From positions 112,358 through 176,357 of the forward strand of contig NZ_JACRTE010000003.1 of the NCBI RefSeq assembly GCF_014385105.1: 64,000 nt of DNA. The letters run 5' to 3'. A program made the translations under genes and the position numbers. Shown in pieces: positions 18,272 through 60,895 of the stretch. The first letter of the stretch is position 1. Each line of letters begins with the position of its first letter. Under the pieces are notes generated by a model that had not been told where the DNA came from, did not search any database, and was given only the letters and a program-made list of their open reading frames with translations. This DNA is from Qingrenia yutianensis (lineage in GTDB: Bacteria > Bacillota > Clostridia > UMGS1810).

Positions 18272-19237
18272 ATGCCGAGCATAAAAATAAACAATAAATC
18301 AAACACCTTTCCCGTGCCGTATGCGTTTGCGGATAAATATATGCCCAGCGCAAATGCAGTTTACGTTAAGGTTTACATATACGCGCTCCGTTTATCGTTT
18401 GACACGGGCTATGAAATCACAATCGAGAGTATCGCGTCAAAGCTTAATATTCTCGAGAGCGACGTTATAAACGCGTTTGAATACTGGAAACAAGTCGGAA
18501 TTATGGAGTTCAAAAAAACCAAGCTCGGCTACGAAACAGAATTTTTGTCCTGCACCGATACCGAAAACACCGCCGACAAAAAGGCACACGCAACGCCGAA
18601 ATATGCGGCAAAGGACGTTACGCGCTGTATACAGGAAAACGACGATATGAAAAATATGTATCAGATTGCACAGGGAATTTTAAACCGTCCTTTAAGCACC
18701 ACCGAAATCACCACGCTTTACAGTATGTACGACTGGCTGGGACTTCCGCGAGAGGTTGTGCTGATGATTTTGGAGCACTGCGCGCAAATCGGCAAAACAA
18801 ATATGCGATACATCGAAAAGGTTGCCGTTTCGTGGTCGGAAAAGGGCATAGACACGCTCGACAAGGCAAAAGCGCATCTTCGCGCGGCAAAAGAATTTAA
18901 CCTTGTCAAAACAAAAATTAAAAATATTTTCCAGATAAAAGACCGAAATTTCACCGAAACGGAGTTAAAATATATCTCAAAATGGATAAACGATATGTCG
19001 GTTGATATTGATATGATAAAAAAAGCGTACGACGTGACGGTGACCAACACGCAAAAGCTGTCGTATCCGTATATGACCACCGTTTTGCAGTCAATTGTGG
19101 ACGGCACGTTTGACAAGCCGAAGTCCAAGCAGGCAAAAGGCGGATTTTTGAACTATACCGAGCGCAAAGACCTCGACGAAAACGACCTTAATATGATTAA
19201 AAAGCGCCGTGAATACATCGCGAAAGGAGAGGCATAA
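18272..19237 (+). CDS. DnaD-domain replication initiation/membrane attachment protein (DnaB/DnaD-like)
   Basis: DnaD-like domain with 'YVKVYIYAL' winged-helix start and a C-terminal DDBH2-like region. The stop overlaps the start of the downstream dnaI-like gene. Confidence 0.7.
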   Translation: MPSIKINNKSNTFPVPYAFADKYMPSANAVYVKVYIYALRLSFDTGYEITIESIASKLNILESDVINAFEYWKQVGIMEFKKTKLGYETEFLSCTDTENTADKKAHATPKYAAKDVTRCIQENDDMKNMYQIAQGILNRPLSTTEITTLYSMYDWLGLPREVVLMILEHCAQIGKTNMRYIEKVAVSWSEKGIDTLDKAKAHLRAAKEFNLVKTKIKNIFQIKDRNFTETELKYISKWINDMSVDIDMIKKAYDVTVTNTQKLSYPYMTTVLQSIVDGTFDKPKSKQAKGGFLNYTERKDLDENDLNMIKKRREYIAKGEA

Positions 19238-20220
19238 TGGATATTGCAAAAATGCTCAAACAGGAGCTTTCGGAGGAATATTTCGAGAAAAAAGAGCGAA
19301 ACGAAAACGAATATGAGCGCAAAAAGGAAATTTTGTATGCCGAGCATCCGCGTCTTAAAGAAATTGACACCGATATTTCGCTCACCGCACTGCGCTGTGC
19401 GAGGAAAATTATAGACAAAACGCGCACGGCGGAGGACGTTTCAAAAGAAATGCTCGAAACGCTCTCGCTCTTAAAAGCCGAGCGCGAGGAGTATATTGCA
19501 AAAAACAATATCGACCCGAGCTACATAAACCCGTCTGCCGACTGCAAAATCTGCAATGACACGGGATATGCTGACGGCAAAATGTGCAAATGTATGAAAA
19601 CGCGCCTTGTTGAAAAGTTATACGAACTTTCGCATATGACCGACGAAAACAAAAAATGCACTTTCAATAAATTTAAGCTTGATTATTACCCCGACCGCGA
19701 CGAAAACAATCTTGGAATTACGCCTCTTGAAAACATAAAAGAAGTGCTTATGGCGTGCAAAAAATTCTGCGAGAATTTCTCGAAAAACAAGCGCGGAATT
19801 TATATTTCGGGAAATGCCGGAGTGGGCAAAACGTACCTTTCGTGCTGTATTGCAAACTACCTTATTTCGCGCGGAAATACGGTACTTTATCAAAGCGCGT
19901 ACCGTTTGTTTTCGTTTTTGGAGGACTATAAATTTATGCGCGTTGACCGAAACGCTTTTTCGCAGTTTTACGATTACATCTACAACTGCGATATGCTGAT
20001 TATAGACGACCTCGGCACCGAGTTTTCCACCACATTTGCAAAGGCGGCATTTTTTGATATAATCAATTCGCGCGCCGACAGCAAAAAGAGCACGGTTATA
20101 AGTTCAAACCTTTCGCTTGCCGACCTTGAGAATTTTTATTCTCCGCGCGTAAAGTCGCGTGTTAATTCGTCGTTTCTGCTTCTCTCGATTTTGGGGGAGG
20201 ATATAAGGGAGAAAATATAA
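19237..20220 (+). CDS. dnaI: primosomal helicase-loader DnaI/DnaC-like AAA+ ATPase
   Basis: Zinc-binding 'CKICNDTGYADGKMCKC', Walker A 'GNAGVGKTYL', Walker B 'LIIDDLG'. Confidence 0.8.
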   Translation: MDIAKMLKQELSEEYFEKKERNENEYERKKEILYAEHPRLKEIDTDISLTALRCARKIIDKTRTAEDVSKEMLETLSLLKAEREEYIAKNNIDPSYINPSADCKICNDTGYADGKMCKCMKTRLVEKLYELSHMTDENKKCTFNKFKLDYYPDRDENNLGITPLENIKEVLMACKKFCENFSKNKRGIYISGNAGVGKTYLSCCIANYLISRGNTVLYQSAYRLFSFLEDYKFMRVDRNAFSQFYDYIYNCDMLIIDDLGTEFSTTFAKAAFFDIINSRADSKKSTVISSNLSLADLENFYSPRVKSRVNSSFLLLSILGEDIREKI

Positions 20221-20811: not shown

Positions 20812-20908
20812 AAACAAAAGACAGCGGGGAGCATTTCTATATGCCTTTCGCTGCCTGTATGAAAGAGCCACACAACCGAGAATTATTCTCTGTTGTGTGG
20901 CTCTGTTA

Positions 20909-22510
20909 TTATTTTTCCCGTGCATACAGTGCCGCAAAATTAAGAAGCTGCTTTTTTGAGGAAACGCCGAGCTTGCTGTAAATATTGCCGTTATGGTATT
21001 TAAGTGTACTCTCTTTAACTTCTGCAATCTGTAAAATTTCAGGAACGGTTTTTCCCTCCAGATAGAGGTCAAATATTGTTCTCTCCTTGGGAGTAAGGCT
21101 GCGTAAACCCGAACAGAAATGATCATAATCATCCTGTATGATGATATTTTTATGCTCTTTCATCAGACGCTTGTTTTCGGTTCTGATGCGTTCAATCTCG
21201 CTTTGCAGACTCTCGTTTTTTTCGGAATGCTCATCGAAGATTTTTTGATATTCGTTATCCTTTCCGGCAAGAAATGCAAAAAGGTCGTCAATTTCCATAA
21301 TACCGCTTTGACTTTCGTCGGAATATGTCTTTTCGGATTGCTTTATTTTGTCAAGCGATTTTTTTATCGGAAGGATAAATCGATTTGAAAAATACAGGCT
21401 AAGGCTTAAAACAGCAAATCCCAAAATCAGAATTATGAGTATAAGCTGTATGGTGTTTTTCGTTTCCAGCCCGGAATAATCCGCATACGGCATCATAACC
21501 GTAATAGAATAAGGTGTGTTTTCGGAATAAAGAGTTGTGTTTCTCGTCATGCCGATATATGCGCCGTATTCATTTTTTAAAGCGACAAGACCCTTTTTCA
21601 GCGGCTTGATTTTGAGGGAATCCTTAGGTGCAAGGAAATATCCGTTTTTTGCTCCGCAGCTTAATCCCTCTTTGATATTGATTTCTTTATCGCCCGAGCG
21701 GGAGAATATGCAGGTTATGTGCGGAAGCGTGGACGGCTGTGCGTGTGCGGACTTAAAAACGCTTTCGTTTACTTCAAAGCCGCAGATGCCGTAAACGCGG
21801 CCGCCGTCGCCTCTGATAGGAAGCGCTACAAGCATAACACGCTCCGACGTTCCGGGAAGCGTTATAATATTACAAATATGAGTGGCTTTTTCAATCGGCT
21901 CGGCGGTATCCGAAAGAACTTCTTCAAAATTCGGGAATCCCCCGGTGTCAAATTCCAAATGCCATTTACGGTGAGGCATAATGCCTTTGTTTATTGCAGC
22001 CTTCACATTTCCCCTGTAAAGAAGCATTGTTTCCTTGTCCGTTGTTCCGAACAGATCCTGATTAAGGTACACGCCTGCTTTTGAACCGCTTTCGCCGGTT
22101 TGAGATGCGTTAATCAGAATAAAAGCGCCGGAACAGCTTGCCTTTAAAAGCTCGTTCTTCAATAAATCAATATAGCGTTCCTCAAGAGCGTTGATATGCA
22201 AAAAAGAATTCTGAACGACGCCAAAATCTGTATTTTCCGAATTGAGATATTGCTCGGTAAGCTGTGCGGCTTTTTCGGAAAGCTGTGCGCCGCGCAAGGT
22301 AATATCATTGTAGTAAGACGTCATTTCACGGTCGAAAAACTCAATCTGAAGGCTTAATATATCCGATATTTTATCCTCGGTTGTCGAAAAACGTCCGAAC
22401 AGGAAAAGAAAAGCCGCAAATATAAGCAATAAAACGATAGCCAGGATAAACATATATCCAAACAGCTTTTTTTGCATAGATTGTCTTTTGTTTCTTACCG
22501 ATATTTGCAT
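20909..22510 (-). CDS. membrane-embedded LuxR-family one-component transcriptional regulator (TM – ~300-aa extracytoplasmic sensor domain – TM – coiled coil – LuxR HTH)
   Basis: TM1 'FGYMFILAIVLLLIFAAFLFLF', TM2 'IQLILIILILGFAVLSLSLYF', and C-terminal 'LTPKERTIFDLYLEGKTVPEILQIAEVKESTLKYHNGNIYSKLGV' LuxR/FixJ-type HTH. No receiver or kinase domain. Start set at Met 22510, downstream of the binding-protein gene's stop. Confidence 0.7.
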   Translation of the reverse strand: MQISVRNKRQSMQKKLFGYMFILAIVLLLIFAAFLFLFGRFSTTEDKISDILSLQIEFFDREMTSYYNDITLRGAQLSEKAAQLTEQYLNSENTDFGVVQNSFLHINALEERYIDLLKNELLKASCSGAFILINASQTGESGSKAGVYLNQDLFGTTDKETMLLYRGNVKAAINKGIMPHRKWHLEFDTGGFPNFEEVLSDTAEPIEKATHICNIITLPGTSERVMLVALPIRGDGGRVYGICGFEVNESVFKSAHAQPSTLPHITCIFSRSGDKEINIKEGLSCGAKNGYFLAPKDSLKIKPLKKGLVALKNEYGAYIGMTRNTTLYSENTPYSITVMMPYADYSGLETKNTIQLILIILILGFAVLSLSLYFSNRFILPIKKSLDKIKQSEKTYSDESQSGIMEIDDLFAFLAGKDNEYQKIFDEHSEKNESLQSEIERIRTENKRLMKEHKNIIIQDDYDHFCSGLRSLTPKERTIFDLYLEGKTVPEILQIAEVKESTLKYHNGNIYSKLGVSSKKQLLNFAALYAREK

Positions 22511-22523
22511 AACAATCCCCCGT

Positions 22524-23846
22524 CTATTTTTCGCAGAGCTTTTGCCAAAGTCCCTCGGCAAGTGCTTCGGGCGGCGTGTTGCTTAATATAAATTGTTTCT
22601 GTTCGTTTCTTAAATAATCGTAAAATGCGTAAACTCTGCTGTAATATTCGGGACTTTGCTGTTCCGATAAAACCTCCGAGCTTTCCTTAATTTTTTTTAG
22701 GGCTGCATAGAGTTTTTCATAATCGGCTGTCTTGAAACGGCAGTCGTCTATTTTGTCAAACGCACCGTTTGTAACCGGCATATAACCTGTTTGGCTTACG
22801 AACTCAAGATTTCTCTCCGGCTCGGTGAGCCATTTGGCAAAAATCACTGCAGCCTCTGCTTTTTGACTTGATGTTTTATATGCGCAAAGACCGACTCCGG
22901 CTTGCGTGATATACGGCTTTTTTCCGTTTTCAGCGGGCAGAGGCAGTATATCCAGATCCATCGGCTCACTCGTTCCGTCCTCATATGTCACGGTATCATT
23001 ATAGTAAAGAATTGCGGCGGACGAGCCTATGCCGGCTACAACCTCGCCTGTCATCACCTGTGTGTTTGAATAGAGATTTGAAAGCATAATATGCCCTTTT
23101 GCAAGCGAATCCGCAAATTTCATAAAGGTTTGCTTAAAAATCACGTTTGACGGGTCATAGAATCCGTTGTCGGCAAAAATATTTCCTGCGCCGCTTTCCG
23201 CAGCCGCAAGCTCAATGGCTCGCAGCGGATAATCAAGAGCGCAGAACGGTTTTCCGCCCGACCAGTCATAATATTTCGCGGCAGCATCGAAAAACCCGTC
23301 CCAGGTGGACAGCGCTTCATATGTAACGCCCGTATCGGCTGAAAAGCGTTCAAACTGACCGCCGGCGATAAACAAAAGATGGGTGGATTTGGACACCGGG
23401 AACACGGACAGCTTTCCTTCTGCCGTGCCGTCCTCCAAAAACTCCGGAACGTATGCCGAAAGCTCTTTTTCGGAAAAATATTCGTTCCAGTCAAGTAAAC
23501 AATCCGTTCCAAGCTCCAGCGCGTTGCTTTTGTGCGCAAAGAAAAGGTCGGGCATTTCGGCGGAACCGGGAATCTTATTATGTGCGTCAAGCAGTTTTTC
23601 GCCTATTTTGGAGGCATTCGACATTGCCGTAACATTGATAATAATGCCTTTTTCCATGCCAACTGTCTCGTTAAATTCGTCAATAAGCCGATTCATCGGC
23701 GAATACGCTTGTTCTCCGTAAACGTGCCACATTGTAAGCGTAACGGGTTTGTTTTTATCAAGCTTCGATTTTTTGCAGCCGGAAAGGCAGCATATTGATA
23801 TGCTGAAAATGAGAAAAAGCAAAAATAATTTTCTTGCTGAATTCAT
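22524..23846 (-). CDS. extracellular solute-binding lipoprotein (family 1, sugar-type ABC binding protein)
   Basis: Lipobox 'CCLSGC' and a 440-aa periplasmic-binding-protein fold. It sits directly upstream of, and co-transcribed with, the LuxR-type regulator. No permease or ATPase genes are adjacent. Confidence 0.75.
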   Translation of the reverse strand: MNSARKLFLLFLIFSISICCLSGCKKSKLDKNKPVTLTMWHVYGEQAYSPMNRLIDEFNETVGMEKGIIINVTAMSNASKIGEKLLDAHNKIPGSAEMPDLFFAHKSNALELGTDCLLDWNEYFSEKELSAYVPEFLEDGTAEGKLSVFPVSKSTHLLFIAGGQFERFSADTGVTYEALSTWDGFFDAAAKYYDWSGGKPFCALDYPLRAIELAAAESGAGNIFADNGFYDPSNVIFKQTFMKFADSLAKGHIMLSNLYSNTQVMTGEVVAGIGSSAAILYYNDTVTYEDGTSEPMDLDILPLPAENGKKPYITQAGVGLCAYKTSSQKAEAAVIFAKWLTEPERNLEFVSQTGYMPVTNGAFDKIDDCRFKTADYEKLYAALKKIKESSEVLSEQQSPEYYSRVYAFYDYLRNEQKQFILSNTPPEALAEGLWQKLCEK

Positions 23847-23928
23847 ATTTAGATTCCTCCGTGATATGATTTGATGATTTTTCCGTTTCTCCTGTTTTAT
23901 GCCGGTAAGTTGCCAACAGATGTAATCA

Positions 23929-24014
23929 ATCCTATACTTTTTCCCCTACTTTTTCAAAAAAACTTAAATTCTTTTGAAATTCATCCTATACTTTTGGCAA
24001 AAAGTATGGGGACA
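23929..24014. promoter_or_regulatory. cluster of CC(n)TACTTTT(T) motifs including a 26-bp palindrome; candidate operator in divergent promoter region
   Basis: aTCCTATACTTTTT (23929–23942), TCCCCTACTTTTT (23942–23954) and aTCCTATACTTTTGG (23983–23997) form an inverted pair with CAAAAAGTATGGGG (24000–24013). Confidence 0.4.
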
Positions 24015-24209
24015 AAAAGATATTTCTATGTATAATGAAAACATGTAAAAACAACAATTTGCAGCACCGGAAAGAATTATCTGCAAAAAAAGATAAAGGG
24101 GCGACCTTTTACGTATGTGTTTCAACCTATTATAAAGTAATCGCAGTTTCTTAAATAAAAAGACGGGTTCTTTTTCAGCTGATATATCCAGCACGAGTAT
24201 ATCACATTC

Positions 24210-24239
24210 TTGGCAATTAGTCAACGGCTTGCGGATAAT
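24210..24239 (+). promoter_or_regulatory. candidate sigma-A promoter TTGGCA –18– GATAAT for the plus-strand gene block
   Basis: TTGGCA at 24210–24215 and GATAAT at 24234–24239. It is about 60 nt upstream of the RBS-supported ATG at 24300 and lies inside the over-extended ORF call 24210..24683. Confidence 0.35.
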
Positions 24240-24299: not shown

Positions 24300-24683
24300 A
24301 TGATAAATGAGAAGCATAAAACGGCTGCATACAAAATTATTCCGTCACAGGGCGGAAACCGTTACAGCTTTTTCTGCGAATTGTCGGGGATGCTTGTTTG
24401 CACAAGCGGAACATATTATGCGGATAATCCGGAAAAAGAGCTTTTTACCGCTTGGGAATCAGAGGGCAAAAATAATTTTAATGTTTGTCACCGATGCGGA
24501 AGATGGGTTGATTCCGTTGTGTATAATCCGGATGTGCTGATGTGCGTGGACTGTGCTCCTCTCGAGGAGGAGGCGAAATACTGCAAGCACTGCGGAGCAA
24601 GAGCGAAAAACGGCGACATAGTTTGCTCCGTATGCGAAAAAAAGTTGTTATACGGAGGTGCCGGTGAAAATGGCGAAATATAA
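24300..24683 (+). CDS. small cytoplasmic double zinc-ribbon protein
   Basis: GGAGG 8 nt upstream of ATG 24300. C-terminal 'CHRCGRW...CVDC' and 'CKHCGAR...CSVC' CxxC pairs. Confidence 0.55.
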   Translation: MINEKHKTAAYKIIPSQGGNRYSFFCELSGMLVCTSGTYYADNPEKELFTAWESEGKNNFNVCHRCGRWVDSVVYNPDVLMCVDCAPLEEEAKYCKHCGARAKNGDIVCSVCEKKLLYGGAGENGEI

Positions 24684-24954
24684 TAATCCGTCAAGAAAAG
24701 AAGTTTTGGAGCATTTCGGTTTCGGTACGGAAAATATGAAAAGGCTTAAAATCTGTCAGTGCTGCGGCAACGCACAGGCCGCAAAAAACAAGCTTTGCGA
24801 GGTTTGTCATACAAAGTTGCGCGATGAAACGCTTTTTGATATTTACAAAGCAAAGCACCGCTGCTGCGAAAAATGCGGGAACGTGCTTCCGGATGACGCG
24901 GAGTACTGTCCCTTGTGCGGGGCGAAACAAAATAATGAAAGAGAGTCAATATAA
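24670..24954 (+). CDS. small double zinc-ribbon protein (overlaps upstream gene by ~14 nt)
   Basis: 'CQCCGN...CEVC' and 'CEKCGN...CPLCG'. Start at ATG 24670 is preferred over the called GTG 24658, which overlaps the ribosome-binding site. Confidence 0.5.
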   Translation: MAKYNNPSRKEVLEHFGFGTENMKRLKICQCCGNAQAAKNKLCEVCHTKLRDETLFDIYKAKHRCCEKCGNVLPDDAEYCPLCGAKQNNERESI

Positions 24955-25128: not shown

Positions 25129-25524
25129 ATGAAAGGAAGAAAGTTTTTGAAGGTCACGGGTATTCTGATGATTATCGGAGGAGCATTTGGTATCATCGGA
25201 GGGATTGTTGCAATGATCGGAGCAGGAGCTTTGGCGGCGGTTCTTGAAACGAGTGCCGGCGGGCTTATGCTTGCAAGTGCGCTGATTCTGGCAAGTGCAG
25301 TATTTCAGCTGGTTGCCGGAATTATGGGTGTAAAAAACTGCGATAAACCCGAAAAGGCTCAAAGCTGCATAGTTATTGGCGTAATTGTGGCAATTTTAAG
25401 CGTAGCGGGAAACGTTATTTCAAACGTGCTTGGCAGTGATTTTAACATCATTAACTACGTTGCCGGTCTGATTATTCCGGTTCTGTACATAATTGGTGCG
25501 GTAAAAAATAAAGAGCCGGCATAA
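25129..25524 (+). CDS. small Gly-rich integral membrane protein (3–4 TM helices)
   Basis: AAGGAGG ribosome-binding site. Hydrophobic GxxxG-rich helices 'ILMIIGGAFGIIGGIVAMIGAGALAAV'. Confidence 0.55.
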   Translation: MKGRKFLKVTGILMIIGGAFGIIGGIVAMIGAGALAAVLETSAGGLMLASALILASAVFQLVAGIMGVKNCDKPEKAQSCIVIGVIVAILSVAGNVISNVLGSDFNIINYVAGLIIPVLYIIGAVKNKEPA

Positions 25525-25592
25525 GTAAAATATCCGAATGCTCCCGCCGTCCGGTTTTTGGCAGCGGGAGCATATGTGCCAAAATTCAAGAG

Positions 25593-26771
25593 GTGATTTT
25601 TATTAAAAAATATATTGCTTTTTTAACGGTTTTATTTCTTTTTATTTTCGGTAATATACTTTGCGTCAATGCCGGCGCAGATATTGCGGTTGGAATAACG
25701 ATAAACGGGGAAGTTATCGAAACGGAGGTTTCACCCTTTGTGGAAAACGGACGTACGCTCGTTCCGGTGAGAGCCGTTTCGGAGCATTTAAAGTACAGCG
25801 TTGAGTGGTTTGCGGAGGAACAAAGAGTCGATATTGATTCGCCCTCCGATAAGCTTACGCTTTACATAGGCAGCGCAGACTATTATAAAAACGGTGAAAA
25901 AAGAACCATGGACGTTCCTGCGGTAATTAAAGACGAAAGAACCTTTGTTCCCCTGCGGCTGGTTGCCGAGGAAATGGGATGTGAGGTTAAATGGGACGAA
26001 GAAAATAATATTGCAAATGTAATAAAATATAACATTGTGGAGGCAAAGACGCCTCATGATATTATACTTAATGCGGCAAGCTATACAAAAATCATTCTTA
26101 AGGAGCAGGAATATGATTTATCGGAGCTTGACGCGATAAATATTGATAACCCCAATGTTTTTGCAGACGATACCTTTGAAGGATACGAATATATAATAAA
26201 AGACGTATCCAATCTTGTTATAGAAGCACCGGAGGGAATAAGCGCTTCTGTTGTAACTCAGGCTCCCTACGCAAACGTACTAAGCTTTAAGGGATGCAGC
26301 GGTATTGTGCTTAAAAATATCACGGCAGGACATAAGGTTGAGAAGGGCTATTGTACCGGCGGCGTAATAATGCTTGACGGTTGCCGGGATATAAATATTG
26401 ATAAATGCGGCCTGTACGGCTGCGGAACGTACGGAATAACTGCGACAGACTCTGCTGAAATAACTGTGGAAAACACGGAAATATATGAGTGCACATATGG
26501 GCTTGTTGAGTTAAGCGACTGTGGCGGAATTAAGTTTAACGGCTGCACATTCAGAGATTCCGGGATGTTTTCAATGTTTGTACTGGACGGCTGCAGCGGT
26601 GTAAGCGTAACAAACTCGGAAATTAAAAATAACAACAGTTCGGAGAATTCGTATTTTATAAGCGCTTACGATTGTTCGGATATTGAATTTTCCGGCTGTG
26701 ACTTTTCAAATAATTCTTATTATAATTTCTGCAGCGGCGATGCTGTAAAATTTACCGGATGCAAATTATGA
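25593..26771 (+). CDS. secreted protein: two copper-amine-oxidase N-terminal-like (stalk) domains + Cys-rich right-handed beta-helix repeats
   Basis: Signal peptide; 'RTLVPVRAVSEHLKYSVEW' and 'RTFVPLRLVAEEMGCEVKW' stalk-domain motifs. The C-terminal 150 aa carry more than 14 Cys in 'GCxG/ CGxYG' ~20-aa repeats. Confidence 0.6.
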   Translation: MIFIKKYIAFLTVLFLFIFGNILCVNAGADIAVGITINGEVIETEVSPFVENGRTLVPVRAVSEHLKYSVEWFAEEQRVDIDSPSDKLTLYIGSADYYKNGEKRTMDVPAVIKDERTFVPLRLVAEEMGCEVKWDEENNIANVIKYNIVEAKTPHDIILNAASYTKIILKEQEYDLSELDAINIDNPNVFADDTFEGYEYIIKDVSNLVIEAPEGISASVVTQAPYANVLSFKGCSGIVLKNITAGHKVEKGYCTGGVIMLDGCRDINIDKCGLYGCGTYGITATDSAEITVENTEIYECTYGLVELSDCGGIKFNGCTFRDSGMFSMFVLDGCSGVSVTNSEIKNNNSSENSYFISAYDCSDIEFSGCDFSNNSYYNFCSGDAVKFTGCKL

Positions 26772-26795
26772 TAAGCATATTAAGGGAGTGAAACG

Positions 26796-27875
26796 ATGGA
26801 AACAGTACAAAGCTATAAGTGTCCTTGCTGCGGTGCTTCGCTGATTTTCCAAAACGAGTCGCTGCACTGCGATTCCTGCGGAAATGATTTTGAGCTTGAC
26901 GCTATGCGGCAAATTGAGGATGTCGGATCGCAAATGCAGGGAGAGTCAAAATATGACTGGGAGCATTACGAACCGAGAAACTATGAAACAGACGGAGAAA
27001 TTGAACTTGCAAGCTATACCTGTCCCTCCTGCGGTGCGGAGATAACCGGTGACGATACAATGGGGTCGACCATCTGCCCTTACTGCGGTGATGCGGCGGT
27101 AATCAAGGGACAGTTTGAGGGAACACTGCGCCCTGATTATATTATTCCGTTTAAAACAGAAAAAAAGGCGGCAATAGAGGCGTTTGAGGCAGATTTCAAA
27201 AATGCGCCGTTTCTGCCGGACGAATTTAAGGTTAAGAAGAAAATTGAAGAAATGACAGGTGTTTACGTGCCATTCTGGATGTTCGATTGCGATTGCAACG
27301 CAGCAATAACTTACGGGGCACAAAGAACCACAAGCTGGAGTGATTCCAATTACAATTATACCAAAACAGATTATTACAGACTTTTCAGAAGCGGCAGTGT
27401 GGGTTTTGCCAACATTCCTGTTGACGGCTCAAAAAAGGCGGATGACGCATATATGGAGGCGGTAGAACCTTTTTGTTATGATGATGCAGTGGAGTTTAAC
27501 GGCGCATATCTTTCGGGGTATATGGCGGATAAATATGATGTTTCGGCAGAGGAAAGCATAGAGCGAGCTAACGAACGTGTAAAAAATTCAACGGTTTCGG
27601 TATTTAAGGAGACGACGAGCGGTTACGCTGCGGTGATTCCCGAAAGTACAAAAATCAGCTTTTCAGGCGGTAAAATAAGGTATTCCCTTCTCCCGGTTTG
27701 GATGCTTAACATCAAATATATGAACAATACCTATAAGTTTGCTGTCAACGGACAGACCGGTAAGGTTGTCGGTGAATATCCTATTGATAACGGAAAAAAA
27801 TGGAGATACTTTGCGAAAATTGCAGGCTTTGCTTATATAGCAGCTGCAGTTATAGCATATTTCTTGCTGCATTAG
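26796..27875 (+). CDS. YdjG-like protein: N-terminal double zinc ribbon, C-terminal TM anchor
   Basis: 'CPCCGAS...CDSCGN' and 'CPSCGAE...CPYCG'. C-terminal TM 'FAKIAGFAYIAAAVIAYFLL'. Directly followed by the TPM gene. Confidence 0.6.
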   Translation: METVQSYKCPCCGASLIFQNESLHCDSCGNDFELDAMRQIEDVGSQMQGESKYDWEHYEPRNYETDGEIELASYTCPSCGAEITGDDTMGSTICPYCGDAAVIKGQFEGTLRPDYIIPFKTEKKAAIEAFEADFKNAPFLPDEFKVKKKIEEMTGVYVPFWMFDCDCNAAITYGAQRTTSWSDSNYNYTKTDYYRLFRSGSVGFANIPVDGSKKADDAYMEAVEPFCYDDAVEFNGAYLSGYMADKYDVSAEESIERANERVKNSTVSVFKETTSGYAAVIPESTKISFSGGKIRYSLLPVWMLNIKYMNNTYKFAVNGQTGKVVGEYPIDNGKKWRYFAKIAGFAYIAAAVIAYFLLH

Positions 27876-27886
27876 GAGGGAGCTAA

Positions 27887-28663
27887 ATGAAAAGATTTGT
27901 TGCAATCATGATTGCCCTTCTCTGCTTTGTATCGACAATTACCGTATATGCGGATTTTATCAATCCAACGATTACGGATTCGGTCGGATACCTGACAGAG
28001 GAACAAAATAAAGAGCTGTCGGCAAGGCTTGATAAAATTCGTGAACAATATAATTTTGACATCGTATTTGTTTCAGAGGATAGATTATCTGCCTATGACG
28101 CACAAGCGGCGGCAGACGACATTTACGATTATAATGGCTACGGTTACGGTGATAATTATGACGGAATACTTTTTTATATAGCAGATTCCGAAAGAGAATA
28201 TCATTTTTCCGTCTGCGGCAGCGGCGAGACAATATTTAACAAAAACGGTCTTGCATACCTTGAAAAAAAGATTGTGCCGTATTTAAAGGAAGATAACTAT
28301 TATGCTGCAGTCAAATCATACGCCGACCGTACGGAAGAGCTTTTGGAGATGGCAGCAGAGGGTAAGCCGTTCAACAAGAGGCAGCACAGCATGAAGTATA
28401 TCCTGTGTGTGGTTGCCGGGGCGCTTCTTCTTCCCCTTATTCTTGCGTATTTTATGATGCACAAAAAGCTCTGCGCAATGAAAACGGCGGTCAAAGAGGA
28501 CTATGCCGGCAATTATATGAAGCCGAACAGTATGAATCTTGACTTTTCAAGGGATATATTCCTTTACAGCACCGTGACAAAAACGGAAAAACCGAAATCG
28601 GATTCCGGCAGCCATACATCGTCTTCCGGAAGAAGTCACGGCGGAAGGGGCGGAAGTTTTTAA
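27887..28663 (+). CDS. TPM-domain (YgcG/YdjH-like) membrane protein with Gly-rich C-terminal tail
   Basis: Signal/TM, then a TPM core 'VGYLTEEQNKELSARLDKIREQYNFDIVFVSEDRL...GILFYIADSEREYHFSVCGSGE', a C-terminal TM and 'SSGRSHGGRGGSF'. Confidence 0.75.
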   Translation: MKRFVAIMIALLCFVSTITVYADFINPTITDSVGYLTEEQNKELSARLDKIREQYNFDIVFVSEDRLSAYDAQAAADDIYDYNGYGYGDNYDGILFYIADSEREYHFSVCGSGETIFNKNGLAYLEKKIVPYLKEDNYYAAVKSYADRTEELLEMAAEGKPFNKRQHSMKYILCVVAGALLLPLILAYFMMHKKLCAMKTAVKEDYAGNYMKPNSMNLDFSRDIFLYSTVTKTEKPKSDSGSHTSSSGRSHGGRGGSF

Positions 28664-28689
28664 AAACAAATTTTAAGGAGGAAAGAATT

Positions 28690-29568
28690 ATGGGAATAGG
28701 TGATTTTTTTAAGAACATTTTCGGTAAAAAAATTTGTGCATTATGCGGCAAGGAATGCGGCATGATGCATCGCACAAAAATCAGGAACAAGGAATTTTTA
28801 TGTGACGATTGCGGAAATCTATGCTCAAAGTACATTAGGCTGAGCGAGCTGACATTGGACGAAGTCAAGGGGCATATAGAATATATGAAAAGGCAGAACA
28901 GACTTTTTGAGGAGGTCTATTCCAAAGAAGGAAAGAAAGACACATACCCTTCGTCGCTCAAGGAAATGGGCATTGAATTTTGCGATGATTTGGGAATGTT
29001 TCGGATTTTGCACAGAAGCAACACGGGCAGAGGCAAAATGAACGAGCTTTTCCGCTACGATCAGGTGGCAAGCTATGAGGAATACATAGATGAAACACCG
29101 GCAACCGAGCCGGGAAAAAATCCTGAATTTAAGGAATGTGGATTAAAAATCAAGCTTTTGGGCGGAAATATGAGCAAGGTTAATACAGACAACAAAAAAG
29201 GTCTTCGTCCTCATCCGTATATTAAGCATGAAATTAAAGTTTGTTTCAGCAAAAAAGACCGTTCGGATTTGCAGTATGCACACAATGCAAAATGCAAGTT
29301 TGATTATATTTTCGGCGTTCACGATGATGAAAGAGGCTTGTTCGGCTTTGGCAGAAGCAAGGCAGAAAAAAGAGAGGATGCGGCAGCGATTGGAATGGCG
29401 GCGGCATTCGGAACGGCTTTTAAGGCTGCAACAAAAGGCGAGGAAGCCGTAACGGAGGCGGACAAAGAAAAACTGAAGGAAGGCATAAATGCTATGAACG
29501 ACGCAGCGACCGGCGGCATGGCGGTTTACACAAGACGTGCGGACGATGCGGAAGCCAAAATAAAGTAA
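28690..29568 (+). CDS. zinc-ribbon domain protein (N-terminal CxxC...CxxC), cytoplasmic
   Basis: 'CALCGKECG...CDDCGN' near the N-terminus. The remainder has no recognisable motif. AAGGAGG ribosome-binding site. Confidence 0.5.
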   Translation: MGIGDFFKNIFGKKICALCGKECGMMHRTKIRNKEFLCDDCGNLCSKYIRLSELTLDEVKGHIEYMKRQNRLFEEVYSKEGKKDTYPSSLKEMGIEFCDDLGMFRILHRSNTGRGKMNELFRYDQVASYEEYIDETPATEPGKNPEFKECGLKIKLLGGNMSKVNTDNKKGLRPHPYIKHEIKVCFSKKDRSDLQYAHNAKCKFDYIFGVHDDERGLFGFGRSKAEKREDAAAIGMAAAFGTAFKAATKGEEAVTEADKEKLKEGINAMNDAATGGMAVYTRRADDAEAKIK

Positions 29569-29583
29569 CGGGAGGTGCAAAAC

Positions 29584-30768
29584 GTGAAAAAACTATCGTT
29601 ATTGCTTGCAGCACTGCTGATCTTAAGCAGCACTGTTGTCAGTGCGGAATGGGAAACATTCAAATCGGCAGACGGTATGTATGAATACACAAAGGATGGA
29701 GTAATTACCGCTTATTACGGTGATGAATTTGCCTTTTTCCCGGCAGAAATAGACGGAACAATAATCAATGAAATCGGTGTTATGGCTTGTTTTGACTTAG
29801 GACTTGAAGCCATATCCGTTGCCGAAGGAATTGAATTGATAAACACAAATGCATTTGAAGGCTGCAATACCGAAAGTGCATATATTCCGTCAAGTGTGAA
29901 AAATATCGGTGAGCGCGCTTTTGCCAACTGCGCAAATCTTAATGAGGTTACATTGAATTCAGAGGAAATAACGTTTGATTTTGATGTGTTTGCCGGAACC
30001 GGATTTATACAGTTTTATATCCCGTGCACGGCAGATGAGCATGTGATGTACGAAAAAATATCCGACGCAAAGGGTGACGGGAATTTTAGTTTTTCACTTA
30101 TGCATACTGCGCTTGTTGAGAGTATGACGGAAAAGGATATTTTCGGTGAAAACATGATATACTGCGAGGACTGCGGCTTTAAAGGAAGCAAATATCTGGA
30201 GGATACCTCTCTGCCGTTTGCGGACATATCGCCGGACGCATGGTACTATTCTTATGTGCAGACGGCGTACAGCTTCGGCATCATAAACGGGAAAAACAAA
30301 AGGGAATTTGACCCGAATGCAGGGCTTACCTGCGCGGAGGCAGCCAAAATTGCCGCGGTAATTCACAATAAAAGCCAATACGAAAGAGAGGAAGTTGAAT
30401 TCCAAATGACCGGTGAAAACTGGTATGATGTTTATGTGGATTATTGCTATGACAATGCAATACTTGAAGATTATATTATCTTCGATTGGGAGGAAAACGC
30501 AACGCGTGCACAGATGGCATATCTGTTTTCGCGGTGCGACACCAATCCGTATTATATAAACGATGTTCCGATAACCGATATTCCGGACGTTTATGACACA
30601 ACGCCCTTCGCATATGAAATTTTAGACCTTTATAATAAAGGAATTGCGGTGGGAAGCGATGAATACATGGCGTTCTATCCGGATTCACATGTAAAACGCA
30701 GTGAAGCGGCGGCTCTTATTTCGAGAATTCTTTGCTACGATATGCGGATTGAATTGCCGAAAGGGTGA
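29584..30768 (+). CDS. secreted BspA-type leucine-rich-repeat protein with C-terminal SLH domains
   Basis: Signal peptide (GTG start at 29584 after GGGAGG); LRR_5-like 'INTNAFEGCNTESAYIPSSVKNIGERAFANCANLNEVTL'; SLH-like 'FADISPDAWYYSYVQTAYSFGIINGKNKREFDP'. Confidence 0.7.
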   Translation: MKKLSLLLAALLILSSTVVSAEWETFKSADGMYEYTKDGVITAYYGDEFAFFPAEIDGTIINEIGVMACFDLGLEAISVAEGIELINTNAFEGCNTESAYIPSSVKNIGERAFANCANLNEVTLNSEEITFDFDVFAGTGFIQFYIPCTADEHVMYEKISDAKGDGNFSFSLMHTALVESMTEKDIFGENMIYCEDCGFKGSKYLEDTSLPFADISPDAWYYSYVQTAYSFGIINGKNKREFDPNAGLTCAEAAKIAAVIHNKSQYEREEVEFQMTGENWYDVYVDYCYDNAILEDYIIFDWEENATRAQMAYLFSRCDTNPYYINDVPITDIPDVYDTTPFAYEILDLYNKGIAVGSDEYMAFYPDSHVKRSEAAALISRILCYDMRIELPKG

Positions 30769-30782
30769 TTAAGGTGAGGCTG

Positions 30783-31313
30783 ATGAAAGCAATTGCGATA
30801 TTTGCGGTTATTGCCGGTCTTTTCGGATGCAGGGCTCCCGGAGAAAAACCTTTTATATTGGACGGACCGGGCATGGTGTATGTTGACAGTGAGCATCGTA
30901 CAGAATACGCAAATACTCTTCCGTTCGATGAAATCGAGGACTATCCCTATTGGGCGGTCGCATATCTTGGAGAGGGAGAAACCGGCAAAAATACGGCAAA
31001 TGAATATATAGAAAAACTTTTTTCAAAGCTTTCAGAGGAAAAATGCCGGGCAATAAGTCATTATGATTACGGCGGAGAAAAATGGTATCTTGTTATTCCG
31101 CGGTACGGAGATGAGAACGAGCTGATTCAAAACGGCGACAAGAAAAATTTGCAAAAAGCAGATGACGGCACACCGTATATAATAAACTGCGGCGGCGATG
31201 TTGAAATTTATATCGTCATACGCGGCGGACACAAAATCACGCTTGATACGGATGAAAACGACAGGCTGATATGTACCCCTGATATATGGGATATAACAGA
31301 CTATAAAGAATAA
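30783..31313 (+). CDS. hypothetical lipoprotein
   Basis: 'AVIAGLFGCRAP' lipobox-like signal. Start chosen at ATG 30783; the called start 30765 overlaps the upstream stop. Confidence 0.45.
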   Translation: MKAIAIFAVIAGLFGCRAPGEKPFILDGPGMVYVDSEHRTEYANTLPFDEIEDYPYWAVAYLGEGETGKNTANEYIEKLFSKLSEEKCRAISHYDYGGEKWYLVIPRYGDENELIQNGDKKNLQKADDGTPYIINCGGDVEIYIVIRGGHKITLDTDENDRLICTPDIWDITDYKE

Positions 31314-31337
31314 AAATTTTGAGAGGAGAATATAATT

Positions 31338-32663
31338 ATGGGACTTTTAAAGGCGGGCGCAGGCGCTCTTGGCGGTGTTTTGGCTGACCAGTGGAGAGAA
31401 TTTTTCTACTGCGAAAGTTTAGATGCCGACACACTTGTGGCAAAAGGTGAAAAACGAGTGGGAAAAAGAAACTCCAACAAAAAGGGAGACGACAACATTA
31501 TTTCGAACGGTTCTGTCATTTCGGTAAACGAAGGGCAGAGCATGATTATTGTGGAATCCGGAAAGATTGTTGAATTCTGCGCAGAAGCCGGAGAATTTGT
31601 CTACGATAATTCCACAGAGCCGAGTATTTTCTGCGGCAGCTTAGGCGAAAGCATTAAGCAAAGCTTTCAGCAGGTCGGAAAGCGTTTTACTTTCGGCGGC
31701 GAACCGGGCAAGGATCAGAGGGTTTATTATTTCAACACAAAGGAAATTACCGGCAATAAATTCGGCACCTCCTCTCCCGTTCCGTTCAGGGTAACGATAG
31801 ATGAGTCCATGAACTATAAGCTGTCGGTGGATTTAAGGTGTAACGGTGTGTATTCCTATAAAATAGCCGATCCTGTTATGTTTTATACAAACGTAAGCGG
31901 TAATGTGGAATATGTATACAGCCGTTCGGAAATTGACGAAATGTTAAAGAGCGAGCTTCTGGACGCTCTGAGACCGGCATTTGCGCAAATTTCGGCAATG
32001 AAAATAATGTATTCGGAAATACCGGCACATACAAAAGAGGTTACGAAGGCGCTTGCCGAGGAACTTAAAGCCGAGTGGAAGGAAAAACGCGGAATCGAGC
32101 TTTTCGCCGTAAGCATTAACGGTGTATCCATCCCCGAGGACCAGAGAAAGAAGATTACCGAGTGGGAGGAAAACGTTATGACAACCAATCCGAATATTGC
32201 GGCGGCGCGCATTGTCGGCGGGCAGACAGACGCTATGAGAACGGCAGCGGCAAACGAAGGCGGAATGGGTGCAATGGGCGGCTTTTTCGGAATGAATATG
32301 GCGCAGAACGCAGGCGGTATGAATGCGGGCAATCTTTTTGCGATGGGTCAGCAGCAACAGCAGTCTCAGCAGCAGGCACAGCAGCCTCAAGCGGCAGGCT
32401 GGAGCTGTGAATGCGGTCAGACGGGCAATACCGGGAAATTCTGTATGAATTGCGGAAAACCGCAGGCATCGCCCGACGGCTGGACGTGTTCGTGCGGAAC
32501 GGTCAACAAGGGTAGGTTCTGCCAAAACTGCGGGAATCCGAAACCTGCGGGCGCACCGACCTATAAATGCGATAAATGCGGCTGGGAGCCTGAAGATCCC
32601 AAAAATCCGCCGAAATTCTGTCCGGAATGCGGTGACATATTTGATGATAATGATAAACAATAA
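31338..32663 (+). CDS. SPFH-domain protein of the YdjI/COG4260 type with Q/G/M-rich linker and three C-terminal zinc ribbons
   Basis: N-terminus 'GVLADQWREFF', SPFH/band-7-like core, 'MGGFFGMNMAQNAGGMNAGNLFAMGQQQQQSQQQAQQ' linker, then 'CECGQ..CMNCG', 'CSCGT..CQNCG', 'CDKCG..CPECG'. Confidence 0.7.
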   Translation: MGLLKAGAGALGGVLADQWREFFYCESLDADTLVAKGEKRVGKRNSNKKGDDNIISNGSVISVNEGQSMIIVESGKIVEFCAEAGEFVYDNSTEPSIFCGSLGESIKQSFQQVGKRFTFGGEPGKDQRVYYFNTKEITGNKFGTSSPVPFRVTIDESMNYKLSVDLRCNGVYSYKIADPVMFYTNVSGNVEYVYSRSEIDEMLKSELLDALRPAFAQISAMKIMYSEIPAHTKEVTKALAEELKAEWKEKRGIELFAVSINGVSIPEDQRKKITEWEENVMTTNPNIAAARIVGGQTDAMRTAAANEGGMGAMGGFFGMNMAQNAGGMNAGNLFAMGQQQQQSQQQAQQPQAAGWSCECGQTGNTGKFCMNCGKPQASPDGWTCSCGTVNKGRFCQNCGNPKPAGAPTYKCDKCGWEPEDPKNPPKFCPECGDIFDDNDKQ

Positions 32664-32686
32664 AATAATGGGAGGAACTTTATATT

Positions 32687-33859
32687 ATGAAAAAAATATT
32701 AGCGTTAATTTTAGCAGTAGGAATGGTATTTTCGCTCGCTGCGTGCGGCGGTGAAAAAACCGGAAAAGGCACCGAAACAAAGCAGGAAACCAAAAAGATT
32801 GACTACGCAAATATGACAGAGGACGATCTGATAAAAGAGTTTATTAAAGATGAGCAGAATATAACCTTGGATGAATTTATAGACCTTGTTTCTACATATT
32901 CATATGCAACAATCAACAATAAGCTTGAGCTTGATGAAAATATAACAGACAAAGCAATAAAAAAGCTTAAAGAAAATAAAGCAAAGCTGCCGGCGGCAAA
33001 GGAATTTGTTGAGCCTCTTTTAAAAAGTGACGCACCGCAGGTAAGAGGCTATGCTTTTTCAAACATCGCCACATTTTTCGGGGCAAGTGATTCGCATAAA
33101 GCGTCGGCAAAGGAGATTCTGAAAACCGAAAAAGAGCCTTATGTTATTAAATGTGCGGTAAAAGCTCTTGGAAATGAAGGCGGCAAGGATGCAGAAATCG
33201 GCAAATTCCTGCTTGATGCGGCAAAGAATGAAAACGCAGTTGTAAGAAGGCAGGCGGCGGTTGCTCTCGGAAGCACATGGAACAAGACTCTTAACGGAGC
33301 GGTTGATGCAGAGATTGAGCTGATGAAGGATCCGGATAAAGAGGTTCGGAAAGCAGCGTATGAGTATGCCGGTCTCCTCGGTGATGACAGGGTGGTTGCG
33401 CCTATCTCGGAAATGCTGAAAAACGAGGCTGACGCAGACCTTCATTCAAGCGGTGTAAGAGGTCTTGTTTGGCTGTGGTATGATTATCCGTCGCACGAAA
33501 ACACAAGCGAGGCGGCATACAGAGCCACGATAGACTACTTTAAAACCACACCGGGCAGCGACAAAGTTCCCGCATGGGCAGCTGTGACAAGCTTTACAAA
33601 CAAATCCGAGAAGAACTATGACGCATGGAAGGAAAAAGCAACATATTTCAATACAGATGAGCTTTATGAAGTTATGCTCGGACTTGTAAAAAACGAAAAT
33701 TTAGGACGTATGACGCGCGGATATGCCTGCAAACCCGTTGCGGTGCATTGCACAAAAGAGCAGTTTGAAGCGTTTGGCGAGGTTATAAACGCTCTTACCG
33801 ATAAGAATGCGAAATTTATACAGGACGAGTATCAAAATCAGGCAAAAAAGCTTGAATAG
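32687..33859 (+). CDS. HEAT-repeat lipoprotein
   Basis: Lipobox 'LAACGG'. Repeated 'VRxxAaxALG' HEAT-like helices (VRGYAFSNI, VRRQAAVALGS, VRKAAYEYAG). Confidence 0.55.
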   Translation: MKKILALILAVGMVFSLAACGGEKTGKGTETKQETKKIDYANMTEDDLIKEFIKDEQNITLDEFIDLVSTYSYATINNKLELDENITDKAIKKLKENKAKLPAAKEFVEPLLKSDAPQVRGYAFSNIATFFGASDSHKASAKEILKTEKEPYVIKCAVKALGNEGGKDAEIGKFLLDAAKNENAVVRRQAAVALGSTWNKTLNGAVDAEIELMKDPDKEVRKAAYEYAGLLGDDRVVAPISEMLKNEADADLHSSGVRGLVWLWYDYPSHENTSEAAYRATIDYFKTTPGSDKVPAWAAVTSFTNKSEKNYDAWKEKATYFNTDELYEVMLGLVKNENLGRMTRGYACKPVAVHCTKEQFEAFGEVINALTDKNAKFIQDEYQNQAKKLE

Positions 33860-33880
33860 CTGCAGAACGGAGGAATGACT

Positions 33881-34723: not shown

Positions 34724-34725
34724 AA

Positions 34726-35301: not shown

Positions 35302-35469
35302 ATGCAAAATCCAAAAGAAAGGAGATGCTAAGTTATATCGAAAGATATTAACGCAGACACAGAAATCTGAAGTTCGGATTATACTGTTATGTAATCCGAT
35401 ACATTCCGGCAAATTTTGCAGAGGAATGTAAAATATCACATCAAAAGAATGAAAGGAGGAAACAGCAAA

Positions 35470-41130: not shown

Positions 41131-41144
41131 AAAGGAGGATGAAT

Positions 41145-58319: not shown

Positions 58320-58541
58320 ATATTTATTTTACACAAATTTTAGTTTGCTTTGTTACTTGATTATACACAAAAAAGACTGTAAAATCAAGATGTAAAATAA
58401 AATTTTTATACTGCGGAAAATCCTGCTTTAAAACAGAGCAAAAACATCTGTTTTTACTGCGGTAAATTTTGCCGTTTGTTTTTTATTTTATTTGTGTTAG
58501 AATTAAAAAAATATATAAATTTAATTCAGGGGGTTTTCAAA

Positions 58542-59909: not shown

Positions 59910-59937
59910 AATAAGCGTATTTAAACAAATTTAAGAG

Positions 59938-60881: not shown

Positions 60882-60895
60882 TGGGGGTGTACTGA

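Follow-up and report, generated by a model that had tools for sequence, protein, structure and literature searches.

A conserved lipoprotein–regulator gene pair of gut Clostridia as a candidate kinase-free route from binding protein to promoter

The DNA analysed here, a 64,000-nucleotide (nt) stretch of the Qingrenia yutianensis genome (contig NZ_JACRTE010000003.1, positions 112,358–176,357; hereafter the window), carries on its minus strand a gene for a solute-binding lipoprotein followed directly by a gene for a membrane-bound LuxR-type regulator (Table 1). The stop-to-stop frame of the regulator would also allow TTG at 22561 as a start, but GGGGGA precedes the ATG at 22510, which matches the N-termini of all homologues, and we therefore assign the regulator 533 amino acids (aa) and the intergenic gap 13 nt. 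A preliminary description of this DNA had recognized the adjacency of the two genes but gave a gap of ∼14 nt and a product of 534 aa, figures that are corrected here, the start being at 22510 and not at 22513. The short spacer, which holds the ribosome-binding site of the regulator, implies co-transcription of the two genes, and the tight spacing is repeated in related loci.

A hairpin just after the regulator stop is the probable end of the operon; a terminator scan did not list it, its T-tract having fewer than five T. Genes encoding DnaB_2-domain and IstB/DnaA-type ATPase-domain proteins (18272–20220) converge on this hairpin. The pair is thus a two-gene operon lying wholly inside the window, and the idea that a transporter is hidden just beyond the window, which the preliminary description had named as a finding that would overturn its reading, is rejected. 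That description had also reported no adjacent permease or ATPase gene, and this holds for the neighbours scanned over ∼20 kb on both sides; likewise, no BPD_transp_1 or ABC_tran gene occurs in the operon in the window or in nine related loci labelled with Pfam (L001, L002, L055, L072, L083, L085, L086, L087 and L089). The binding protein is not, then, encoded with two permease genes in the manner of the CUT1 class. A canonical sugar ATP-binding cassette (ABC) locus, with a divergent AraC-type regulator gene, an SBP_bac_1 binding protein and BPD_transp_1 permease(s), lies 35 kb away (57444–61750); its binding protein is only remotely similar to that of the pair.

The hydropathy profile of the regulator shows two hydrophobic segments with ∼307 aa between them. 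Exactly two such segments are present in 62 of 66 homologues, at a spacing of 299–314 residues. Net charge across the 66 homologues is +4.6 in the N-terminal tail and +3.1 after the second transmembrane segment (TM2), while the outer flanks are negative; by the positive-inside rule, this family-wide pattern places both termini, and with them the helix-turn-helix (HTH) of the C-terminal end, in the cytoplasm. The HTH (aa 472–526) matches the GerE/LuxR profile of Pfam (PF00196) at 6.1e-11, with 42 bits against a curated cut-off of 23.5 bits, and its four helices complete the assignment to the LuxR/FixJ family. GerE is the sole domain that Pfam or NCBIfam recognizes in the protein: neither collection gave a match to HisKA, HATPase or Response_reg, and Pfam gave none to Trans_reg_C.

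An AlphaFold model of the regulator, built from a 66-sequence alignment, has a mean predicted local distance difference test score (pLDDT) of 83.7, rising above 90 over most of the extracytoplasmic (outside) domain. The modelled order is TM1, two long helices, two beta-rich lobes (aa 128–341), TM2 running into a helix that extends to aa 398, a second long helix (aa 405–454) and the four-helix HTH. Between TM2 and the HTH there are plain helices only, with no kinase, HAMP or receiver domain in the model. A coiled coil formed by the single helix at aa 405–454 is plausible, and such a predicted dimerizing helix, together with the four clustered half-sites described below, would be compatible with dimeric LuxR/FixJ DNA binding. 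The layout of the preliminary description (a transmembrane segment, ∼300 aa outside the cell, a second transmembrane segment, helices and a C-terminal LuxR HTH, with kinase and receiver domains lacking) is therefore upheld by hydropathy, profile searches and model alike, and the topology on which it could have foundered came out as two transmembrane segments and a cytoplasmic HTH. With these segments, a cytoplasmic DNA-binding domain and no phosphorelay domain, the protein is a transmembrane one-component regulator.

The outside domain has no sequence match in Pfam, NCBIfam or the PDB; the Pfam double-Cache (dCache) profiles do not match it, nor does any Cache family even at E-values up to 1. 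Comparison of folds alone identified it: a long N-terminal helix and two PAS-like alpha/beta modules are held between the two transmembrane segments, so that, as modelled, the domain is a dCache member by fold only, in line with the Cache-like domain suggested earlier. Its top structural matches, McpX, Tlp3, PctA and McpU, all bind their ligands directly. Within the family H180-R181-K182-W183 is invariant and lies on a strand of the membrane-distal lobe; Y148 and G167, also invariant, lie on strands of the same distal module.

The upstream gene encodes a family-1 solute-binding lipoprotein, as had been proposed from its sequence. The SBP_bac_8 profile of Pfam matches it at 2.1e-19 (70.9 bits against a cut-off of 27 bits), and the Cys24 of its lipobox, LSGC, is invariant among relatives. 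Its AlphaFold model (pLDDT 90.3; alignment of 54 sequences) has the two-lobed type II binding-protein fold and is matched in Foldseek by binding proteins of the MalE/CUT1 type (MalE, CbpB, UgpB and 7c0f; E ∼1e-20, probability 1.00, TM-score 0.65–0.79). On the model the fold class is thereby confirmed. Sequence-level matches in the PDB are weak (4e-5). The closest solved relatives share only 15–21% identity with the lipoprotein and bind ligands as diverse as cyclic maltosyl-maltose, cello- and sophoro-oligosaccharides, maltose, glycerophosphocholine (UgpB) and a dinucleotide (the 7c0f series); the label ‘sugar-binding’ of the preliminary description is therefore a reasonable guess from the modelled fold class rather than a result. 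Many aromatic residues are invariant in the binding protein, which is compatible with a sugar-like ligand without identifying it. The protein also has a weak similarity to UgpB, and in one related locus (L086:9706–15195) a complete Ugp-like ABC importer (binding protein, two permeases and a MalK-type ATPase), accompanied by genes for a glycerophosphodiester phosphodiesterase and a HAD hydrolase, is convergent to the regulator; this single case, taken with the UgpB similarity, hints at a phosphodiester ligand.

In order to follow the pair across genomes, one genome per species was scanned, which gave at least 578 confirmed matches, part of which may share the HTH only; at least 80 loci had full-length matches, and loci are cited here by L numbers. 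Neighbouring genes were assigned by searching the translated loci with the window proteins. The binding-protein gene lies directly upstream of the regulator gene in 66 of the 68 loci with enough upstream DNA, and in two of two look-ups made from the side of the binding protein the regulator was the next gene downstream. Because the same pair recurs in this way, chance adjacency is rejected. The pair is also present twice in L026 and L032. Its flanks are otherwise variable and include ribosomal protein genes, conjugation genes, ilv genes and a radical-SAM/Nif11-like cluster. In distant loci the binding protein retains a mean identity of 58% (52–65%), against 40% for the regulator and 38% for its outside domain; stronger conservation of the binding protein is what would be expected for one fixed ligand. 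Together with the lack of transporter genes in its operon, this makes the binding protein look like one devoted to signalling.

Carriers of the module number at least 80 species-level genomes and are nearly all gut or rumen Clostridia (Oscillospiraceae, Acutalibacteraceae and Lachnospiraceae bins). Butyricicoccus pullicaecorum DSM 23266 is a cultured carrier, and the window itself is ∼99% identical to an uncultured Clostridia bin (L003). The protein collection holds more than 190 full-length relatives of the regulator, in all of which GerE is the sole Pfam domain, and a profile search with the binding protein yielded nearly 2000 relatives. Separate entries 95–98% identical to the binding protein number more than 100 in the database, whereas the near-identical relatives of the regulator form one entry of 2156 member sequences; this contrast could be a clustering artefact or could reflect strain-level diversification of a surface-exposed lipoprotein.

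Upstream of the operon, the motif AAAAGTA(T/G)(A/G)GG has four exact matches in the window, all of them within 80 bp (23931–24010). Two form an inverted pair (site 1) and two a tandem direct pair with a 12-nt period (site 2). The strict tandem pattern is present in 17 of 66 loci and in none of 3300 shuffles. An alignment of loci whose regulators are 50–95% identical has a clear footprint exactly over the four half-sites, and site 1 is kept down to regulators of 50–53% identity, with a concerted change from GTAT to GGAT: in L020 GGAT replaces GTAT in all four half-sites, and in L021 the inverted pair reads GGAT and the direct pair GTAT. A C–A mismatch within the inverted repeat is conserved. 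A strict search for the exact 8-mer AAAAGTAT failed in distant loci, and looser, architecture-based searches were needed; these loci have the same half-site layout with other cores, and the core tracks the subtype of the recognition helix. Thus, TLKYHNGNIYSKL goes with GTATRGG, TLKYHNHNIL with GGTGGGG or GGTATGG, GLKYHNKNIYMKL with GGGTAGG, and TVRFHNRNIY..NSLKQLL with TTGATAGG. A repeat of the right arm downstream of site 1 is present in 10 of 21 non-identical loci and in 22% of shuffles, an enrichment that is only moderate. From this comparison we infer that the four half-sites are a candidate operator of the regulator.

The half-sites stand in a suggestive relation to two promoters, both of them predicted from consensus matches and comparison. 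The left arm, when read on the strand that points away from the binding-protein gene, gives GGGACA, and a consensus TATAAT stands 16–17 nt beyond it in 42 of 66 loci. An inverted repeat overlapping a weak −35 is the geometry of activator-dependent promoters, and the predicted promoter faces the divergent genes. A strong promoter-like sequence faces the binding-protein gene, has similar counterparts in 38 of 66 loci, and implies a leader of ∼340 nt that encloses the repeats.

The divergent genes begin with a pair encoding small cytoplasmic zinc-ribbon proteins. This pair accompanies the module more often than any other neighbour does (41 of 65 loci, at a distance of up to 1.2 kb) and is, on this evidence, the likeliest direct target of the regulator. 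Behind it in related loci recur genes for SPFH (Band_7_1), TPM, zinc-ribbon+TM, DUF4428 and LRR/SLH proteins, and parts of the window's block are divergent from the module also in L002, L041, L054, L061, L063, L075, L080, L086 and L089. The preliminary description had named this zinc-ribbon/TPM/SPFH block as the likely target. The link is supported by the frequency of the arrangement and by operator-like repeats at the very place to which that description had pointed; since the pair stands among housekeeping genes in some genomes, the block is a frequent rather than an obligatory target.

Table 1. Features of the module and its surroundings; coordinates refer to the window unless a locus is named. 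Promoter, operator and domain assignments are predictions on the basis given.
Feature	Position	Strand	Basis or remarks
Hairpin, probable operon end	20864–20904	−	13 bp, GC-containing; just after regulator stop; sequence read
Transmembrane LuxR-type regulator gene	20909–22510	−	533 aa: TM1, dCache outside domain, TM2, helical linker/coiled coil, GerE HTH
Cytoplasmic helical linker and probable coiled coil (aa 375–455)	21146–21388	−	AlphaFold helices 342–398 and 405–454
TM2 (∼aa 352–374), then K/R-rich stretch	21389–21457	−	Hydropathy, AlphaFold, family-wide charge
Extracytoplasmic double-Cache-fold domain (∼aa 41–345)	21476–22390	−	
Family signature PHRKW (aa 179–183)	21962–21976	−	Inside extracytoplasmic domain
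TM1 (∼aa 16–39), preceded by K/R-rich cytoplasmic N-tail	22394–22465	−	Hydropathy, flanking charge; AlphaFold helix 12–37
Spacer between the two genes, with regulator ribosome-binding site GGGGGA	22511–22523	−	13 nt; sequence read
Solute-binding lipoprotein gene	22524–23846	−	440 aa; open reading frame and Pfam SBP_bac_8
Signal peptide and lipobox LSGC	23775–23846	−	Signal peptide ends in LSGC
Ribosome-binding site GGAGG of binding-protein gene	23856–23860	−	Just upstream of start
Candidate operator site 2, tandem direct half-sites AAAAGTAGGGG, AAAAGTATAGG	23931–23953	−	Copies 23931–23941 and 23943–23953; 12-nt period
Candidate operator site 1, inverted half-site pair AAAAGTATAGG (minus strand), AAAAGTATGGG (plus strand)	23985–24010		Copies 23985–23995 and 24000–24010
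Promoter-like GGGACA-16-TATAAT facing zinc-ribbon genes	24009–24036	+	Weak −35 overlapped by site 1; consensus match
Promoter-like TTGACT-17-TG-n-TATACT (strong) facing binding-protein gene	24196–24224	−	Consensus match
Divergent pair of small cytoplasmic zinc-ribbon genes	24300–24954	+	127 aa and ∼95 aa; Pfam DZR
Co-oriented block, possible extended regulon	25129–35301	+	Pfam scan: small membrane protein, Cu-amine-oxidase-N/beta-helix, zinc-ribbon+TM, TPM, DUF4428, LRR/SLH, SPFH (Band_7_1), HEAT, TMEM43-like
RNA-like element of related loci	L060:2792–2934, L077:337–479, L041:8365–8507, L083:6364–6506, L072:8374–8517, L032:8386–8530		∼14 more loci

Several observations concern the block itself. 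The zinc-ribbon+TM, TPM and SPFH proteins recur as a set beside the module in many loci, and DUF4428, DUF6935-like and HEAT proteins travel with this set. The zinc-ribbon+TM (26796–27875), TPM (27887–28663) and SPFH (31338–32663) proteins resemble YdjG, YdjH and YdjI of Bacillus subtilis, a resemblance drawn from domain types and from terminal residues deducible from primers in PMC8581546, and a lead only; the B. subtilis proteins are under sigma-W control and recruit PspA to the membrane (PMC8581546). No PspA gene was identified among the block proteins scanned, NCBIfam provided no names for the proteins of the target block, and PADLOC returned no defence-system match for the module or its neighbours except generic HEAT hits. 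Beyond the block lie two very large co-oriented genes, the first (35416–41130) encoding 1904 aa with a C-terminal dockerin and the second (41112–44453) encoding 1113 aa with Flg_new, YDG/MBG and Cu-amine-oxidase-N domains; elsewhere a surface protein of 1400–1600 aa with Flg_new, with or without SLH, directly follows the zinc-ribbon pair. Other envelope-related genes of the window encode an SLH-anchored GH18 glycosidase (8495–10423), a phosphodiester glycosidase (NAGPA; 48152–50461) and a fused glycosyltransferase/polysaccharide pyruvyl transferase (50607–52928), which could pyruvylate a secondary cell-wall polymer for SLH anchoring.

Variants of the arrangement occur in individual genomes. 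In B. pullicaecorum (L032:4660–11647) and a relative (L026:4777–11641) the two pairs face each other around a zinc-ribbon gene, the second regulator being far more diverged (175 against 417 bits). In L025:4766–5902, L027:6116–7129, L028:2394–3650, L030:7453–8685 and L031:11771–12769 a second, shorter protein (330–420 aa), with a closely similar LuxR HTH and little or no outside domain, is encoded right after the regulator. The module, zinc-ribbon pair and giant surface protein lie beside conjugation genes in L001:12000–21671 and L083:11300–17644 (TraG/VirD4-type coupling protein, MobL, PrgI, TrbL and CHAP), a context that suggests carriage on an integrative conjugative element. In the single locus L085:1991–6117 the genes divergent from the module encode a pair of small proteins, one of them Nif11-like, together with an unknown protein of 460 aa and a radical-SAM/B12-binding enzyme. 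They look like a peptide-modification cluster, and the output to which the module is connected may differ between genomes.

The leader of the operon was also considered as RNA. In the window its fold energy is no better than that of shuffled sequences (z = −0.47), leaving a stable structure there unsupported, and Rfam has no match in the intergenic region. Related loci carry in the same leader, right after a strong promoter, a conserved RNA-like element of ∼143 nt with a stem that covaries, a hairpin that varies and, beside a UAUACCCUCCUU box, a pseudoknot-like GGGGUAC/GUAUACCCC pairing. Over 10 sequences, pairing takes in 85% of cells, and both partners change in 11 pairs, more than in all 500 shuffles. 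A covariance model made 20 hits at E <1e-6 in 1.2 Mb, all of them on the operon strand and directly upstream of the binding-protein gene; Rfam gave only chance eukaryotic hits in L072, the one carrier locus scanned. The model has no match in the window, where the promoter is kept, and a degenerate 3′ half of the element may, by eye, be present at ∼24055–24110. The element may be a new cis-regulatory RNA or riboswitch.

We propose, with a probability of roughly 0.55, that the pair is a two-gene, kinase-free module: the state of the binding protein would be relayed to the dCache domain, and the LuxR domain, itself bound to the membrane, would act on the divergent region. Such a module would probably allow genes to be turned on straight from the membrane with no kinase involved. 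The membrane-tethered lipoprotein would bind an extracellular solute, its fold class covering oligosaccharides, glycerophosphodiesters and similar compounds, and, whether liganded or unliganded, would dock on the dCache domain of a regulator that is probably dimeric. A conformational change would then run through TM2 and the long cytoplasmic helices or coiled coil to the pair of C-terminal HTH domains, which would bind the four half-sites while still anchored in the membrane. The regulator would activate the promoter with the weak −35 and so the zinc-ribbon genes and the envelope/surface block to ∼35.3 kb, possibly further, and would probably also modulate expression of its own operon, because the half-sites lie inside that operon's long leader.

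Several points weigh against this proposal. That the binding protein contacts, and signals through, the regulator is something we infer from gene linkage. dCache domains normally bind small ligands themselves, and the invariant HRKW and the other invariant residues lie in the membrane-distal half, where they could belong to a pocket for a ligand instead of a surface for docking. Orphan binding proteins of the CUT1 type can work with transporters whose genes lie at another locus. The zinc-ribbon pair is not beside the module in about one-third of loci, and the divergent neighbours in L072 and L055 are housekeeping genes. The co-variation of half-site and recognition helix is confounded by phylogeny. 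Finally, the leader that holds the repeats is transcribed, and the repeats show some self-complementarity; they might therefore act at the RNA level.

Because dCache domains usually bind ligand and the invariant HRKW is membrane-distal, direct sensing stays a live rival: the dCache domain would bind a small molecule in its distal pocket, with the lipoprotein outside the signal path as a co-expressed scavenger that supplies an ABC importer encoded elsewhere with that compound or a related one or, at most, as a ligand concentrator near the sensor. The direct ligand binding of all four top structural matches and the invariant Y148 and G167 beside HRKW favour this idea, as does the complete Ugp-like operon next to the module in L086, and sharing of components is known among CUT1 systems. 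Yet no conserved transporter travels with the pair, which is kept as a tight operon while its flanks vary and which duplicates as a unit, and it is the binding protein, not the sensor domain, that is under the stronger constraint; on balance we consider direct sensing unlikely. A different departure from the proposed module would keep the sensing step and change the output, with cleavage near TM2 freeing a soluble coiled-coil–HTH fragment to act in the cytoplasm. CadC, for which such release is reported (PMC11484849), offers a precedent, and a stretch of low model confidence (aa 398–404, pLDDT <50) separates the membrane-proximal helix from the coiled coil. No sequence feature points to a cleavage site, however, no protease gene is conserved beside the module, and both ChiS and the LuxR regulators with 10–12 transmembrane helices are described as membrane-anchored, which makes regulated proteolysis highly improbable here.

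The repeats invite a further question, namely whether they work as RNA-level leader elements (alternative hairpins, an attenuator or the site of another factor), with the targets of the regulator lying elsewhere. They are located downstream of the strong promoter facing the binding-protein gene, and the left arm is able to pair with each downstream copy; moreover, a covarying structured RNA occupies the same leader in many related loci, so that RNA-level control of the operon exists in the family. The window leader, as noted, neither folds better than shuffles nor matches Rfam, and the differing cores of L021 (GGAT and GTAT) fit tolerant protein half-sites better than mutual pairing. The conserved C–A mismatch also counts against an RNA-level reading, a tandem period of 12 nt and the TATAAT-16/17-GGGACA promoter geometry are features typical of sites in DNA, and different recognition-helix subtypes go with different cores. 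That the repeats themselves work at the RNA level therefore appears rather improbable, and the candidate operator of the kinase-free module remains our preferred reading of them.

Kinases, chemoreceptors, cyclases and Ser/Thr kinases are all known to take part in binding-protein-dependent sensing, and sensors of this kind have been reviewed (PMC8050422); transcription factors bound to the membrane form a separate class. The module shares with binding-protein-dependent sensors such as LuxPQ, ChiS-CBP and the three-component systems the linkage of a binding-protein gene to a sensor gene, and differs from them in having no histidine-kinase, cyclase or methyl-accepting output. The closest functional analogue is ChiS-CBP of Vibrio cholerae, in which a binding protein governs a membrane-embedded regulator that binds DNA from the membrane, and in which unliganded and liganded CBP both matter (PMC12704726). 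ChiS, from a Gram-negative organism, keeps histidine-kinase and receiver domains and its phosphorylation state sets DNA binding, whereas the regulator described here has a LuxR-type HTH and neither domain; CBP is periplasmic and also serves a transporter, whereas the partner here is a lipoprotein whose operon includes no transporter gene. Genes for binding proteins next to two-component systems have been described in Firmicutes (PMC8233162). The three-component sugar sensors of Firmicutes (for example XylFII-LytS-YesN, and NagB1 beside a two-component system in Paenibacillus) pass a phosphate to a separate regulator, while in the module sensor and DNA-binding domain share one polypeptide that lacks HisKA, HATPase and Response_reg.

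Among membrane-bound transcription factors, the ToxR-like character noted in the preliminary description holds as an analogy of logic: ToxR, CadC and TcpP likewise are single polypeptides that join a sensing part outside the cell, by way of a membrane anchor, to a DNA-binding domain in the cytoplasm. It does not hold as family membership, since ToxR-type proteins have an N-terminal OmpR-type winged helix, one transmembrane segment and a C-terminal periplasmic domain, whereas this regulator has two transmembrane segments and a C-terminal LuxR-type HTH. Transmembrane transcription regulators are common; the catalogue of them by Demey et al. (2023) ranks GerE third in frequency among their DNA-binding domains (4943 proteins), proteins with two transmembrane segments make up 17%, and dCache_1 occurs in 936 (∼2%), mostly with an AraC-type HTH (PMC10269533); a binding-protein partner is not described for this class. 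DadR, CadR and HcdR of Eggerthella lenta, which have been shown genetically to activate neighbouring divergent genes in response to small molecules (PMC9734109), are also LuxR-type activators of a gut bacterium with a membrane-embedded N-terminal part and a C-terminal GerE HTH. These Coriobacteriia proteins have 10–12 transmembrane helices and neither a large outside domain nor a binding-protein partner, in contrast to the two segments that prevail in the present family. Compared with other dCache sensors (PctA, Tlp3, McpX, DctB and the LuxQ-type tandem PAS), the output here is DNA binding rather than a methyl-accepting or kinase domain, and the sequence is too diverged for the Pfam dCache models.

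A literature search turned up no description of a binding protein paired with a kinase-less dCache–LuxR membrane regulator, finding only the Eggerthella 12-transmembrane family and general surveys. The parts being known and their pairing undescribed, we regard the module as a new combination of known parts in a large uncharacterized family, not as a new principle. The observation made in the preliminary description is thus confirmed with small corrections, and its interpretation is partly supported. A fuller formulation, which we hold tentatively and at somewhat less than even odds, runs in gut Clostridia from a dedicated binding lipoprotein that has no transporter through a diverged dCache domain to a membrane-tethered LuxR dimer: this would be the first pathway from binding protein to DNA without a kinase, a second messenger or a soluble regulator, with conserved zinc-ribbon, SPFH/TPM (YdjGHI-like) and giant surface-protein targets, perhaps an envelope- or host-derived glycan or phosphodiester as signal, and an undescribed structured leader RNA in many species.

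If the proposal is correct, no known route from binding outside the cell to a promoter would be shorter than this module. Its compact two-protein design and defined candidate operator would make it an attractive biosensor chassis, and the family is widespread, uncharacterized and experimentally tractable. The module is abundant in Oscillospiraceae of the human and animal gut, including the culturable butyrate producer B. pullicaecorum. Its conserved predicted targets are proteins of unknown function; the identity of the ligand would give a handle on the remodelling of envelope and surface in these commensals.

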